Origin: Alistipes sp.
GTDB taxonomy: Bacteria; Bacteroidota; Bacteroidia; Bacteroidales; Rikenellaceae
DNA length: 64,000 nucleotides
NCBI GenBank assembly: GCA_017621455.1
Contig: JAGATC010000017.1
Coordinates: forward strand, 113,172-177,171
Direction of reading: 5' to 3'
Positions 56,791 to 61,373 of this stretch are shown here, in pieces (positions within the stretch are counted from its first letter, which is position 1; every line of letters begins with the position of its first letter). Both the position numbers and the translations under genes were made by a program. Below the pieces are notes generated by a model, which did not search any database, was not told the origin of the DNA, and saw nothing but the letters and a program-made list of their open reading frames with translations.

Positions 56791-56918
56791 ATTGGTTTTC
56801 GGCTGCAAAGGTAATAAAAAAAAGTGACGGGCAAATATTTCGGTAAAATTATTTTCTTATAGTGACATAGGCAGGGCTGATAGCATAATCGGAGAGGGGT
56901 GCTATTAGCACCACAAAC

Positions 56919-57120
56919 TAATTTTTATGAGAAGAGATTAGATCTTTCGACTACGCTTCGCTACGCTCAAGATGACATGTAGTGAGGCCCCCACGACCTA
57001 ATTTCTTGTCAGAAGGGGTTAGGCTTGGTCTATCACAAGCAAGATAGTACAAAGACGTACAGCCTGCGACACTCTACTTTTAGTGATGGGCCGAGAATGA
57101 CACCTTATCACAAGAAATTA
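56919..57120. mobile_element. Composite repeat: REP-like palindrome unit plus family A MITE-like copy 5
   Basis: AGATCTTTCGACTACGCTTCGCTACGCTCAAGATGAC unit, then TAATTTCTTGTCAGAAGGGG...CCTTATCACAAGAAATTA. Confidence 0.7.
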
Positions 57121-58226
57121 TGCAGTAGGTAGCTAATCTTATCACTCGGACACTCATCCTCTCTTACGCGTGTGGCGTAGCCATCCTTGCTGATTACCAC
57201 GCGCTTTGTGGGGCTTTGGTTCTCCACGGCTATATCTATATGGAACTCGCCCTGGCTATTGGTGGTGGCGGTCACGCCCTCCACATCGACGGTAACACCC
57301 TCAATAGGGATGCCATTGTCATCGAGGACAACACCAGCATAAGTACCGAAGCTATCATCGCGGCTGAGCGCTATGGCAACGCTGTTACTTATGCCTGCAG
57401 TGAGAGGAATGGGCTCCACTATATCGTTATAGTATGTCGCAGCGAAACGCAGCTCCACATCACGCAGACGATAGTAGCCTGGGAGGTCATCAATAACAAC
57501 ACTCTGGTCGAATGATGCAATGCTATATTTACGCCCCGCAACCTCGATATAAGCCTCCTCGGGCATGGGGAGGTTGTTGTGGTTTGCGTCGCGTAGCTCT
57601 ATGGTTAGCGACACAGGTACTGCAAACCAGTAGATGAGAAATAGCGAGAATAGGCCAAGAGTACTACCCAACAGCGTGTTGCGTCGACGCTCCCTGAGGT
57701 GACGGCGCCACAGCTCGTCAAACTCAATGTCAAGCATGCGCGACACCACACGGATATATGCCTTGGTTGCCCCAGCCTCGCGTATATCTACGCTAAGCAG
57801 CTCCTTATCTGGATTCGCCGCGTAGTGGTCGCGAAGTACGGGAGGTATGGGGTTGTCGGCACCCTCGGAGGTGATGTCACCACCAACGATAAAGGGTATG
57901 ATATACTCATCCCTACCCCACTCCAAAAAGGTACGTATCTCGTTGTTCACCCACTCTGAGGCCGCCGCCTGCGGGGAGCATACAACGATAAGGAACTTGG
58001 AGCTATCGAGGTGCTTGCGTAGCTCATGGTTTAGAACACCAGCCCCCAGGTCGGCACGGTCGCGAAAGATGGGACGCAGATAGCGGCTATCCTCAAACTC
58101 GTTGTGTATCTCAGCAGGAAGTTTATACGACTCCAACCTACGCTGTAGCCATCGGGCATGTCGTGTATCGCGGTGGCTATAGCTGATGAAGGCGTACTTC
58201 TTACGTGCTGTGTGCATCTCGGCCAT
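57108..58226 (-). CDS. TIR-domain membrane protein (TIR - TM - predicted periplasmic beta-sandwich domains)
   Basis: AFISYSHRD, IFRDRADL, LIVVCSPQAAASEWVNNEI; TM LLGSTLGLFSLFLIYWFAV; C-terminal GVVLDDNGIPIEGVTV...TTNSQGEF. Confidence 0.88.
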   Translation of the reverse strand: MAEMHTARKKYAFISYSHRDTRHARWLQRRLESYKLPAEIHNEFEDSRYLRPIFRDRADLGAGVLNHELRKHLDSSKFLIVVCSPQAAASEWVNNEIRTFLEWGRDEYIIPFIVGGDITSEGADNPIPPVLRDHYAANPDKELLSVDIREAGATKAYIRVVSRMLDIEFDELWRRHLRERRRNTLLGSTLGLFSLFLIYWFAVPVSLTIELRDANHNNLPMPEEAYIEVAGRKYSIASFDQSVVIDDLPGYYRLRDVELRFAATYYNDIVEPIPLTAGISNSVAIALSRDDSFGTYAGVVLDDNGIPIEGVTVDVEGVTATTNSQGEFHIDIAVENQSPTKRVVISKDGYATRVREDECPSDKISYLLHNFL

Positions 58227-58234
58227 GGTAGAGA

Positions 58235-60388
58235 TTAGTTATTTGTGGCACCAAACATATCGTACAGAGGCGATGGGATAGTGACATAGAAGTTAGCATC
58301 TGCCTCTATTGCAAGACGATACATCTGCTCCGCCTTTTTTGTTTTACCCGATAATAGTGCCATCTCACCCTGGATATTGTAGTATTGCGCACACTCGCCA
58401 TACATCGACTTGTATCGCTCCAATGCACTCTTCACATCGCCCGTACGACCCGAGCCGTGAAGAGCAATGATATAGCCTCTATATGCCAAGCCATGCTCAT
58501 AAGCCACCGCCTCGGCACCGTACGTCGCGTATAGCTCATCCATAATGCCTACCGCTGCTTCAGCCTTTTCGAGCGACTTTACGTACTTTGCCTGGTCGTT
58601 GTAGAGCGACATAAAGTTGATGTTTATGCGTGCATACTCGAGCTTCACATCGGGCAGTGGTGAGCGCTCGTAAAGTTCGCTGATAAAGCCCAAGGCGCGG
58701 TCGTAGTATATTTCGCTCTTAGCATATAGCTTACTCATATAGGCGAGGTATCCCAAGTTGTTGAGCGTCTGGTAGTAGCTCATACCATGCATACCAGGGC
58801 TCTGCTTATATAACTTCTGCACATACTCGTATGCCTCTTCCATATACTCCAACGCCTTAACATTATCACCCAGAGCGTTATACATATAGCCCATGTTTAA
58901 GTGAATTTCAAAGAGGCTGGTGTTATACTTTTCGGGATTGTACGTATATAACATATCGCATAACTCTATAGCAAAGTCGTATGACTTAAGTGCAGCGTCG
59001 AAGTCACCTATCTCGGTATATGCTCTTGCAAGTCCTGAGTATGCCACCATAAGTGAGTGCTGCGACTCAATCTTATCGATCATCACAGCACTATCCTTCG
59101 CTATACTAGTATACAAAGCTGCCTGTATATTAAAGACATCAATAGCCTCACGCCACATGCCTCGTACCACATACATATAACCCAACGAGTTGGCCGCACT
59201 CGACCTGGCTATAGGGTGCGCATACTCCGCGTCGAGAATGGGCGTAAGCACCTCTATCGCCTTATCGAACTCACCTTTGATTACGTATATCTCGCCCATG
59301 TTCTGCAGATGGACGTAATACATAGCCTCATCCTCCGAACATACCGCTAAGCCCGCCATTGCATACTCGAGAGCCTTATCTGCATCGCGTAATAAGATAT
59401 AGGCACTCGCGAGGTTGTGACATGCGTCAGAGTAGGTGTCAACATCGGGATTAGACTGCAATACGAGTAGCGACACCTCCACCGAGCGCTCTACGTCGCC
59501 CTGCTGAATGAGGAAGCTGGCGTAGTCGCTCGCAGCCTTAGTGTTGGTGACATCTACCGCAAGGATTTTCTCATATAGGTCGTAGACCTTTTGGAAGTTC
59601 TCCTCGCCTCCCGCCAATAGGTATATAAGCACCTGACGCTCAATGGCCTCGTAGGTCTGCGCAATCTCGGCATTCATCTTATCCAACTCCTCGTTACGCT
59701 GCTCCACCTGACGGATATATGTCTCGAGAAACCTCTGGTCTTCGTACATCTGTATCGCTTCATCTATGCGTCCCTCCTCTATGGCTGCCACAATCTCCTT
59801 CTCTACAACCGACAGGTTCTCAAGGTCGATGCGCGCAAAGCGGTCGATGTAGCTTGTGAGGTCCTGCAGGCGCTGCTCATACTCGTTCACAAGGCGTGTA
59901 CGCTCCTCTTCGTAGGCCTGCTCCGAGATACGATTCTGCTGACGCTCCTGCTCGAGGCGTTCCAACATGCGCTCATGCTGCACACGGTAGCTATTCGAGC
60001 AGTTTGAGTAGTAGCGGTCGCATAGATTCTTGAAATTGGCACTCTTTACCATAACGATAACAAAGGGCTCATCTACGCTGATGTTCCACTGCTCCAGTGC
60101 GTCGAGGTTAAGAATCTCGTAGCCCTCCTTTACGATGCTTGTCACGCTCACACGCTGTCCTGGTCGCATGGTGCGGAACTCGAGGATAAAGCGACCATCT
60201 TGTGCCGACACAGTAGAGCCCGCATTCTTGATGTTTATCTCTACGCCCGAAAGGGGAGTCTTCTGGTTTTCACCGTTATACTCTTTGATGTATCCGACCT
60301 GCTGGGTCTGTGCCTCGGCCGTGAATATACCCACCTGTGCAACGACTATCGCTGTTGCGAAAAGGGTTTTGAGGAGATTTCGTCTCAT
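58235..60388 (-). CDS. Secreted TPR-repeat protein with N-terminal carboxypeptidase-regulatory-like domain
   Basis: Signal MRRNLL...AEA; PLSGVEI..STVSAQDGRF; coiled coil; many TPR-like repeats (ANSLGYMY, NNLGYLAY); -7 box TATATTTG at 60413-60420 favours the 60388 start. Confidence 0.82.
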   Translation of the reverse strand: MRRNLLKTLFATAIVVAQVGIFTAEAQTQQVGYIKEYNGENQKTPLSGVEINIKNAGSTVSAQDGRFILEFRTMRPGQRVSVTSIVKEGYEILNLDALEQWNISVDEPFVIVMVKSANFKNLCDRYYSNCSNSYRVQHERMLERLEQERQQNRISEQAYEEERTRLVNEYEQRLQDLTSYIDRFARIDLENLSVVEKEIVAAIEEGRIDEAIQMYEDQRFLETYIRQVEQRNEELDKMNAEIAQTYEAIERQVLIYLLAGGEENFQKVYDLYEKILAVDVTNTKAASDYASFLIQQGDVERSVEVSLLVLQSNPDVDTYSDACHNLASAYILLRDADKALEYAMAGLAVCSEDEAMYYVHLQNMGEIYVIKGEFDKAIEVLTPILDAEYAHPIARSSAANSLGYMYVVRGMWREAIDVFNIQAALYTSIAKDSAVMIDKIESQHSLMVAYSGLARAYTEIGDFDAALKSYDFAIELCDMLYTYNPEKYNTSLFEIHLNMGYMYNALGDNVKALEYMEEAYEYVQKLYKQSPGMHGMSYYQTLNNLGYLAYMSKLYAKSEIYYDRALGFISELYERSPLPDVKLEYARININFMSLYNDQAKYVKSLEKAEAAVGIMDELYATYGAEAVAYEHGLAYRGYIIALHGSGRTGDVKSALERYKSMYGECAQYYNIQGEMALLSGKTKKAEQMYRLAIEADANFYVTIPSPLYDMFGATNN

Positions 60389-60499
60389 ATTGTTGGGATT
60401 GTAATATTTATGCAAATATATACATTTTTTTTAAATCGTACAACACCTTGCCCCACGACCATTTTTTTATCAACAGGGGTAATGACCCATTATCACAAT

Positions 60500-60712
60500 A
60501 AATTTCTTGTCAGAAGAGATTAGATCTTTCGACTGCGCTTCGCTACGCTCAAGATGACATGCAGTGAGGGCACCACGGCCTAATTTCTTGTCAGAAGGGT
60601 GCCGAGTGCAACACTCGGCAAAAATACCACCGATGGGTAGTACTTAGACGTACGTCCCATTGGTGGCATTTTTTGTTAGGGGCCGCAATCGACCCCTTAT
60701 CACAAGAAATTA
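60500..60712. mobile_element. Composite repeat: REP-like unit plus family A MITE-like copy 6
   Basis: 60500-60600 is a near-identical direct repeat of 56919-57018; ends CCCTTATCACAAGAAATTA. Confidence 0.7.
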
Positions 60713-60713
60713 T

Positions 60714-61373
60714 CTACTCGATGTAGTATGCCTTCGAGGCATCACGCGCAGGGGCAGCGGGAGCTTCACCTGCGGGATAGCCAAAGGCGATAGCTATCTG
60801 TAGGTGGTAACCCTCGGGGAGGTCGAGACGCTCGAGGTAGGGCTTTGCAGCGTCGGAGTTCATCACAGGGATGACACTACCAAGGCAGCATGAGCCTATG
60901 CCCATGCTCCACGCCGAGAGCATCATATTCTCGGCCAAGAGACCAGAGTCGAACTCACCGCTATAGCTCTCATCCGGCACGGCGATAAATGCCACGGTGG
61001 GAGCATTGCGGAAGAAGTTGCGGAAGTTGGGTTGCTCCTTAAGCTGGGGCATCTGCTCCACAGCGATAGCTGTCACGCCATCGATAAAGTCGGGAGCATC
61101 GACCACACGCACCGCCCACGCCTGCATATTCATAGCGCTGGGGGCGTAGATGCCGCACTCAAGAATCTTTGCCATCTGGTCGCGGTCTACAGGCTCTGCC
61201 TTATAGTCGCGCACCGAACGACGCGTCATAATATTCTCAACAACAGCACTCTCCTTGTCGCAAGTGCACTGCTCACACTCTTTTTCGGCGCACTCGTTCG
61301 AGCAGCAACCAACCATTGTCGCAGCACCTACAAAGGCTACTGCAAATTTAGCCAACTTGTTCATAACCATCAT
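60714..61373 (-). CDS. Nitroreductase family protein with lipoprotein-like signal
   Basis: TRRSVRDY, APSAMNMQAW, SAWSMGIGSC, AFGYP; MVGC lipobox. Confidence 0.88.
   Translation of the reverse strand: MMVMNKLAKFAVAFVGAATMVGCCSNECAEKECEQCTCDKESAVVENIMTRRSVRDYKAEPVDRDQMAKILECGIYAPSAMNMQAWAVRVVDAPDFIDGVTAIAVEQMPQLKEQPNFRNFFRNAPTVAFIAVPDESYSGEFDSGLLAENMMLSAWSMGIGSCCLGSVIPVMNSDAAKPYLERLDLPEGYHLQIAIAFGYPAGEAPAAPARDASKAYYIE

Follow-up and report, generated by a model that had tools for sequence, protein, structure and literature searches.

A gene pair that may connect the outside of the cell to a cytoplasmic TIR (Toll/interleukin-1 receptor) domain was found in the genome of a gut-dwelling Alistipes species of the order Bacteroidales (GenBank assembly GCA_017621455.1), within a stretch of 64,000 nucleotides (positions 113,172–177,171 of contig JAGATC010000017.1) referred to here as the window. 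Gene 1 (58235–60388, minus strand) encodes a predicted exported protein in which a signal peptide is followed by a beta-sandwich of transthyretin-like type, by long helices and by ~11 tetratricopeptide repeats (TPRs). Gene 2 (57108–58226, minus strand) encodes a protein of 372 amino acids with a TIR domain, a transmembrane (TM) helix and two beta-sandwiches. The best reading of this pair, to which we give an even chance of being correct, is that it is an accessory trans-envelope TIR module – periplasmic sensing by the TPR partner would activate the TIR domain, and an NAD-derived product would be read by proteins with RyR domains.

The two genes are found together in other genomes. Loci were gathered from species-representative genomes, from contigs encoding database homologs, and from metagenomes, and 28 non-redundant loci had a full-length ortholog of the TIR protein. 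In 24 of these, the TIR ortholog adjoins one or two genes of the partner type, defined by the signal peptide, sandwich and helical region of the partner. Two partner-type genes are frequent – a short one (~265 amino acids, without TPRs) and a long one (600–1000 amino acids, with TPRs). The TIR gene may be the first or the last of the set, and this variable order points to functional linkage rather than to frozen, inherited synteny. A preliminary description of this DNA, made from the sequence alone, had proposed co-occurrence as a check on the pairing, and the pairing held. The two genes are a conserved module. Two modules stand in tandem in one metagenomic contig (L042:7147–19437), the first consisting of a 948-amino-acid TPR partner and a 369-amino-acid TIR-TM protein, the second of a 1026-amino-acid TPR protein, a 377-amino-acid TIR protein and a 97-amino-acid RyR protein.

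Both genes were compared with those of two strains of the same species whose module is flanked in the same way (L119 and L120) and with those of a more distant strain (L121). The ratio of non-synonymous to synonymous substitution rates (dN/dS) was 0.08–0.16 in both genes, and therefore both are kept by purifying selection; no positive selection was seen in dN/dS calculated domain by domain (all <0.3). Relative to L119, dS was 0.035–0.057 in the N-terminal domain of the partner, in its helices and in the entire TIR gene, with values of 0.035–0.046 for the N-terminal domain and the helices. Across the TPR array it was 0.24–0.60, with the peak at residues 386–545 (dN 0.11, dS 0.60). Since the raised dS is confined to the TPR array, allelic replacement by recombination probably took place there. 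The pattern indicates that strains differ by a recombination mosaic in the array, which is what would be predicted for the part that does the recognizing. In one conspecific contig of 10.7 kb (cluster P0125; proteins P0173 and P0176), the partner gene was called in two pieces of 413 and 303 amino acids, and in some strains of the species the TPR gene may be broken while the adjacent TIR gene is intact.

The TIR domain of gene 2 covers amino acids 1–168 (57723–58226, minus strand). Its residues 13–117 match the Pfam families TIR_2 (50.9 bits, cut-off 28) and ThsB_TIR (46.6 bits, cut-off 21.2; 4.8e-12), and Foldseek matched this part of the protein to the TIR structures of MAL, AbTir, L7, RPS4 and B. 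cereus. The cytoplasmic part is exceptionally conserved. In an alignment of 44 homologs, S90, W92, V93 and E96 were invariant, all within the stretch SEWVNNEI (residues 90–97), as were an AFISY strand and a YLRPxFRDxxDL strand with the BB-loop (FRD..DL..G). Because SEWVNNEI was aligned with SSWCLDEL of the Arabidopsis TIR 3jrn in a profile search of PDB sequences, E96 (codon 57939–57941, minus strand; motif SxWVxxE) is assigned to the catalytic Glu position of plant, SARM1 and bacterial TIR enzymes. The N-terminal TIR domain with a conserved Glu in the preliminary description is borne out by these results. The domain has the catalytic Glu (SxWxxxE) and the BB-loop of enzymatic TIRs, and is catalytically plausible on the strength of this motif.

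In the AlphaFold2 (AF2) model of the gene 2 protein (predicted local distance difference test, pLDDT, 84), the TIR fold at residues 10–165 is followed by a continuous helix at 169–202 and by sandwiches at 205–292 and 293–372. The juxtamembrane and TM helix together cover amino acids 169–204 (57615–57722, minus strand). They contain the only hydrophobic segment of the protein (185–203), in agreement with the one TM helix first proposed, with a positive cluster (RRHLRERRRN) just before it on the N-terminal side. There is no N-terminal export signal. With a single TM segment, a preceding positive cluster and no export signal, the protein is predicted to be a type II membrane protein with the TIR domain in the cytoplasm and both sandwiches outside the inner membrane. 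This differs from secreted TIR virulence factors of the Tcp/Btp type, as the positive-inside TM segment places the TIR domain in the cytoplasm. The two sandwiches (57111–57614, minus strand) are predicted to be extracytoplasmic. The second is transthyretin/CarboxypepD_reg-like and has the invariant motif RxDECP at its C-terminal end. At residues 297–356 it scores 32.0 bits with the CarboxypepD_reg profile, slightly below the cut-off of 32.3, and membership in this group is indicated by the fold. Foldseek gave TM-scores of 0.76–0.77 to the transthyretin-like domain of carboxypeptidase D (5aq0) and of 0.76 to the periplasmic N-terminal extension (NTE) of SusC (9hfj).

The partner encoded by gene 1 has a signal peptide at amino acids 1–26 (60311–60388, minus strand), with a hydrophobic segment at 5–23 and predicted cleavage at AEA|QTQQ. 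A26 and Q27 were invariant among 34 partner homologs, and there is no lipobox cysteine. An Ala|Gln cleavage context is the Q-rule of the Bacteroidetes. The mature protein begins with a beta-sandwich (27–116; 60041–60310, minus strand), continues with a long-helix, coiled-coil-like region (117–261; 59606–60040, minus strand) and ends with the TPR array (262–717; 58238–59605, minus strand). In the AF2 model (pLDDT 88), the sandwich strands lie at 28–115, helices of 30–40 residues extend over 116–259 (116–150, 156–185 and 220–259), and 22–24 TPR-type helices follow at 262–716. The array is matched by TPR_12 (64 bits), TPR_1 (61 bits) and further TPR families in Pfam, and by TPR superhelices in Foldseek. 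The whole protein is predicted to be located outside the inner membrane.

The signal peptide, sandwich and TPR array seen at first reading were therefore all recovered. Two finer points were recovered in part. The sandwich, first read as carboxypeptidase-regulatory-like, gives no match in Pfam but is homologous to the second sandwich of gene 2, and the coiled coil is present as long helices in the model, its name being a reading of those helices. The similarity of the sandwiches of the two proteins, also proposed earlier, was confirmed for this pair of domains by profile-profile comparison with HHalign (94.4% probability, E 8.9e-8). A homologous domain common to both exported parts fits a co-receptor model, in which one would dock on the other.

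Homologs of the module come from gut and rumen Bacteroidales, among them Alistipes, Prevotella, Bacteroidaceae and unnamed metagenome-assembled genomes. Among 301 evenly drawn genomes of the order, the TIR family was found in only 6 (E <= 1e-20), and among 24 sister species of the genus, one had a relative, at 34% identity. RyR genes were found in 23 of the 301 genomes, including all 6 carriers of the TIR family (Fisher exact test, phylogeny ignored, five families involved, p = 1.0e-7). Within the genus, TIR_2 and RyR also co-occur (counts 6/2/3/15, p = 0.008).

The association with RyR is also seen at the level of loci. RyR or channel-like genes were found within a few kb in 9 of the 28 ortholog loci, and also in an operon of a congener; the further genes in related loci share the orientation of the module. 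In the closest ortholog groups, L033 and L031, the order is a sigma-like gene (182–189 amino acids), a gene for a papain-like protein with a RyR domain (338–372 amino acids), one or two TPR partners, and the TIR-TM gene. The papain-like domain is of the Peptidase_C39_2 type, with a zinc ribbon added in L033. A small RyR protein is encoded a few kb downstream in both, and in L033 a second TIR gene follows the TIR-TM gene.

In other loci (L006, L014, L015, L018, L044, L122 and L123), the neighbor belongs to a channel-like family of 665–783 amino acids with 2–3 N-terminal TM helices. Pfam gives no recognition of this family other than a Slo-like RCK match in one member. A RyR domain in it scored below significance with a custom RyR hidden Markov model (HMM) and at 9.7% with HHalign, with the H..W, H and YD motifs aligned. 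The family is tied to RyR by a 778-amino-acid protein of L123, encoded beside a 1727-amino-acid TIR protein, that has matches to the channel-like family and also to Pfam RyR (48.8 bits). In the congener (genome G314, locus L122, C51:92000–107000), a single operon encodes a TIR protein, an exported TPR protein, a TIR-TM protein, a PrsW protease, an MscS-like protein, a channel-like protein and a 96-amino-acid RyR protein.

The genome analyzed here has RyR genes of the same kind on a contig other than that of the window. There, three consecutive genes (C11:89750–91748, minus strand; the two with RyR domains at 89750–91184) encode a sigma-70-region-4-like protein (182 amino acids, a weak Pfam match of 17.5 bits), a papain-like/RyR/zinc-ribbon protein (377 amino acids, RyR 99.9 bits) and a small RyR protein (97 amino acids, RyR 117.9 bits). 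They are 52–54% identical to their L033 counterparts, which share an operon with the TIR/TPR module, and orthologs of the trio are operonic with the module in other Bacteroidales. A Cys, His and Asp triad is conserved among three aligned papain-like sequences and is presumably the active site. The channel-like family was not found in this genome by tblastn. There are three further TIR genes in the 2.1-Mb genome, at C18:7177–7503, C15:50703–50984 and C20:39030–39323 (L001–L003). One is a Macro-TIR fusion (361 amino acids, Macro 67.6 bits), and two encode TIR-TM-ectodomain proteins (388 amino acids with a weak Lcl_C match, and 474 amino acids), so receptor-like TIRs are a small family in this genome.

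Phage proteins with the RyR domain (R12, PF02026) have been described in two 2026 preprints – they bind 2'cADPR, 3'cADPR and cADPR, the isomers of cyclic ADP-ribose (cADPR) that TIRs produce, at nanomolar affinity or cleave a ribose-ribose bond (PMC13232231; 10.64898/2026.06.04.730250). The ligands of the phage sponge are 3'cADPR, 2'cADPR and cADPR (10.64898/2026.06.04.730250), and the ligand contacts of the glycosidase RyDEP are His75, Trp78, His100 and Asp117 (PMC13232231). The host RyR proteins linked to the TIR family keep VH(E/D)xW and YDR; in the small proteins the second His is retained as well, within K(H/E)HPCL. Thus the same domain family and the same ligand-contact residues (H..W, H, D) occur in host proteins. 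The phage RyDEP and RyR-Tad proteins are counter-defence glycosidases or sponges, however, whereas the RyR proteins here are encoded by the host, in many cases as fusions with output domains, and have a genomic link to a TIR. A cADPR-type messenger with RyR receivers would be the simplest reading of this link, by analogy with the phage proteins.

The nature of the RyR proteins also bears on a different explanation, in which the membrane TIR is an abortive-infection effector that directly depletes NAD+ when an envelope sensor fires, with no messenger, and the RyR proteins are mere safeguards (sponges or glycosidases) or are unrelated. Many bacterial TIRs act through NAD+ depletion, the top PADLOC domain match of the protein is a CBASS TIR effector model (SAVED_TIR), and the window has no adjacent receiver gene. 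The RyR-output fusions encoded beside TIR-TM genes – to a papain-like peptidase, to an RCK channel-like protein, and in L077 to TPR-S and a guanylate cyclase – nevertheless resemble receivers and not buffers, and a suicide NADase is an unlikely account of the module. The L077 case is from a soil metagenome (L077:9959–14118), in which the gene for a 629-amino-acid TIR-TM relative is followed by one for a 751-amino-acid RyR/TPR-S/adenylate-guanylate cyclase protein; judged by its domains, the latter seems to join a RyR sensor to an output that makes a second messenger.

In the preferred reading, a trans-envelope TIR module with RyR readers, the TPR array of the partner would bind a periplasmic ligand. 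The partner would dock on the ectodomain of the TIR protein through the homologous sandwich and the helices, and the helices would oligomerize. Docking would cluster the TIR protein and assemble a composite TIR active site; in all known enzymatic TIRs, it is clustering that assembles this site. The clustered TIR would then convert NAD+ to an ADP-ribose-type nucleotide, probably a cADPR isomer, which RyR-domain proteins would read and small RyR proteins would remove, terminating the signal. Both the binding of the partner and the NADase activity are inferred. The transducers in this genome are perhaps the papain-like protease and the sigma-like regulator of C11, with the 97-amino-acid RyR protein; in relatives they may be the channel-like RCK/RyR membrane proteins. 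Phage attack at the envelope, another envelope insult and an environmental cue are candidate triggers. A role in conflict or stress is more likely than one in housekeeping, and a role in defence is plausible. Taken to its full extent, the proposal is of a complete bacterial outside-in TIR pathway – a TPR co-receptor and a TIR receptor, a cADPR-type messenger, and host RyR (Repeat12) control of a protease and sigma-like regulator or of RCK-type channels – and this we put forward only tentatively, as possible but on balance doubtful.

Of the known systems, the module would work most like Thoeris-type TIR signaling, though its sensor side has no precedent there. Thoeris types I–XI are known, and type X consists of a TIR and a predicted ion channel (10.64898/2025.12.03.692087). 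As in Thoeris, the presumption is that a TIR with the catalytic Glu derives a signal from NAD and that another protein receives it, and relatives of the module adjoin channel-like proteins. In contrast to Thoeris, the TIR is membrane-anchored with an ectodomain and has an exported TPR partner, and the candidate receivers carry RyR domains; RyR has 0 occurrences in the paper on the Thoeris types (10.64898/2025.12.03.692087). No adjacent Thoeris effector was found, the only operon partner being the exported TPR protein, in which no domain known for signal binding or killing is present, and the tblastn search with the channel-like family gave no counterpart of the type X ion channel in this genome. 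The statement in the preliminary description that no ThsA-type effector is adjacent holds, but only for the immediate neighborhood; RyR-domain genes are found in orthologous operons and on C11.

The TIR could also work like ThsB and detect a cue from phage in the cytoplasm, with the anchor, ectodomain and TPR protein serving only to localize or stabilize it. The match to ThsB_TIR would be in keeping with this, as would the pairing of TIRs with membrane or ion-channel effectors in validated Thoeris types (10.64898/2025.12.03.692087). Against cytoplasmic sensing are the conserved exported partner, which shares a domain with the ectodomain, and the strain variation, most of which falls in the exported TPR array rather than the TIR. 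Moreover, more distant relatives keep the TIR-TM unit and have the ectodomain swapped, as sensors do. Sensing of this kind is quite unlikely.

Some related operons encode proteins that hint at envelope stress. PrsW-family intramembrane protease genes were found inside TIR/TPR/RyR operons of L122 (131 bits) and L031, with an MscS-like gene in L122; in Bacillus, PrsW is the site-1 protease of an envelope-stress anti-sigma factor. These genes would agree with a non-enzymatic complex for envelope maintenance, with the TIR acting as an adaptor between proteins and the TPR/helical protein as a periplasmic scaffold like CpoB/YbgF, the coiled coil and TPR protein of the Tol-Pal system. The partner does have the plan of CpoB – a signal peptide, a helical oligomerization region and TPRs – and its sandwiches and those of the TIR protein are similar to NTE domains of SusC, which are periplasmic. 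Unlike CpoB, though, the partner has an extra N-terminal sandwich and a far longer TPR array, no sequence match between the two was obtained, and there are no Tol-Pal neighbors in the window. The invariance of the catalytic Glu and its surrounding motif, the patchy, accessory distribution, and the specific co-occurrence with a nucleotide-binding domain family (RyR) also argue against an envelope scaffold, which is improbable.

Several observations weigh against a sensory TIR module with RyR readers. The case is built on sequence and predicted structures, and contact between the two exported parts is proposed from their shared domain. Four of the 28 TIR orthologs have no detectable partner. No RyR or channel gene is adjacent within the window, the C11 RyR genes might just as well belong with the three other TIR genes, and the Fisher test that associates the TIR family with RyR takes no account of phylogeny. 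The TIR domain has ~55% identity across families, more typical of a core signaling protein than of an arms-race gene. The locus also does not appear to lie in a defence island. PADLOC, which had been suggested as a check for a defence system, matched no system here; with PADLOC and NCBIfam, both proteins and the associated RyR, sigma-like and channel-like proteins gave domain-level or far sub-threshold matches only. One relative of the module adjoins a restriction-modification pair.

The neighbors of the gene pair in the window are housekeeping genes: metK, coaD, lpxD, a nitroreductase gene and hutI/H. Both open reading frames (ORFs) are on the minus strand at the coordinates first read, with 8 nt between the stop of gene 1 and the start of gene 2, and the two-gene arrangement proposed at the outset is unchanged. 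A promoter box of the Bacteroidetes -7 type, TATATTTG (60413–60420, minus strand), is found 25 nt upstream of the ATG of gene 1; the motif TAnnTTTG has 53 occurrences in the window, relative to 26.8 expected. A longer ORF for gene 1 was listed, with a TTG start at 60415; as this start falls within the -7 box, the ATG at 60388, giving 717 amino acids, is the right one, and the end coordinate given earlier for gene 1 stands. A second -7-like box, TATGTTTG (58252–58259, minus strand), overlaps the last part of the TPR gene and precedes the ATG of the TIR gene by 26 nt. It is a match to the TAnnTTTG motif only. From its position, gene 2 may also have its own promoter, and the box may be an internal promoter that allows separate expression of the TIR gene.

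The module is accessory and probably horizontally mobile. A strain-specific segment of 3.8 kb that includes it (56874–60713) has no counterpart in the closest sister species, with nucleotide homology ending at 56873 and resuming at 60714. The metK-side and nitroreductase-side flanks are on different contigs in that species, so that the empty site cannot be reconstructed, and an insertion at this site is suggested by the end points of homology alone. Searches by tblastn found no copy of the module in phage records and no full-length copy in plasmid records, in which the only matches were to the TIR domain of unrelated proteins.

Direct repeats of 106 nt are found on either side of the genes, the downstream copy at 56912–57017 and the upstream copy, 89% identical to it, at 60494–60599. 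They were considered as borders of a mobile cassette and rejected, because parts of them occur dozens of times in the genome – both are built of dispersed intergenic elements similar to repetitive extragenic palindromes (REP) or miniature inverted-repeat transposable elements (MITE), with dozens of copies, on most contigs. The repeats could nevertheless have mediated rearrangement. A REP-like repeat found beside the module is also present near the C11 RyR genes, and the 3' ends of neighboring genes run into a common TAATTTCTTGTGATAAGG motif near the 106-nt repeats. Flanking repeats and a strain-specific segment are what would be seen if the two genes were adjacent by chance or were decaying cargo of a mobile element. 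That account is barely credible, as it is contradicted by the linkage in 24 of 28 loci and by the low dN/dS of both genes, and the repeats are ordinary dispersed elements.

TIR genes paired with TPR genes are known from BcTir/BcTpr of Bacillus cereus (10.1101/2023.05.26.542521) and from E. coli TIR-II (PMC11350192). BcTir and BcTpr are cytoplasmic, and the N-terminal glycosidase domain of BcTpr carries out NAD chemistry (10.1101/2023.05.26.542521); TIR-II has a cytoplasmic TIR and TPR, often with an ATPase (PMC11350192). In contrast, the TPR protein described here is predicted to be exported and has no enzyme domain, its N-terminus consisting of a signal peptide and a sandwich. Literature searches found no description of an exported TPR partner for a membrane TIR, no paper in which membrane TIRs are connected with such partners and with RyR proteins of the host, and none that makes host RyR proteins the receivers of a TIR-derived cADPR-type signal.

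To our knowledge, both sensing and action are cytoplasmic in all TIR systems so far characterized in bacteria. According to a 2024 survey of E. coli TIRs, features of Toll receptors such as a transmembrane domain are seemingly absent from bacterial TIR systems (PMC11350192). The module resembles animal Toll-like and interleukin-1 (IL-1) receptors in being single-pass, with an outer recognition part, a cytoplasmic TIR and a soluble or co-receptor partner. It differs from them in its reversed polarity, in the lack of leucine-rich-repeat (LRR) or immunoglobulin (Ig) ectodomains, and in a TIR of enzymatic type rather than a pure adaptor. The Toll-receptor-like topology that was first proposed is therefore retained in part – a predicted single pass, with the TIR inside and the recognition part outside – but with the TIR at the N-terminus and the polarity reversed. 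The likeness is an analogy of logic and does not imply common ancestry of the receptor plan.

The complete pathway from TIR to RyR has a real chance of being a signaling route of a new kind. If so, TIR signaling would extend to sensing at the level of the envelope, through an ectodomain and an exported, fast-diversifying TPR protein, in a module as small as two genes and 3.3 kb. Host RyR-domain proteins would gain a cellular context – it was not until 2026 that cADPR isomers were identified as the ligand of this domain, and then in phage proteins alone. The pathway would then be a prokaryotic counterpart, and possibly a forerunner, of Toll-type receptor logic and of the disputed cADPR–ryanodine receptor axis of animals.

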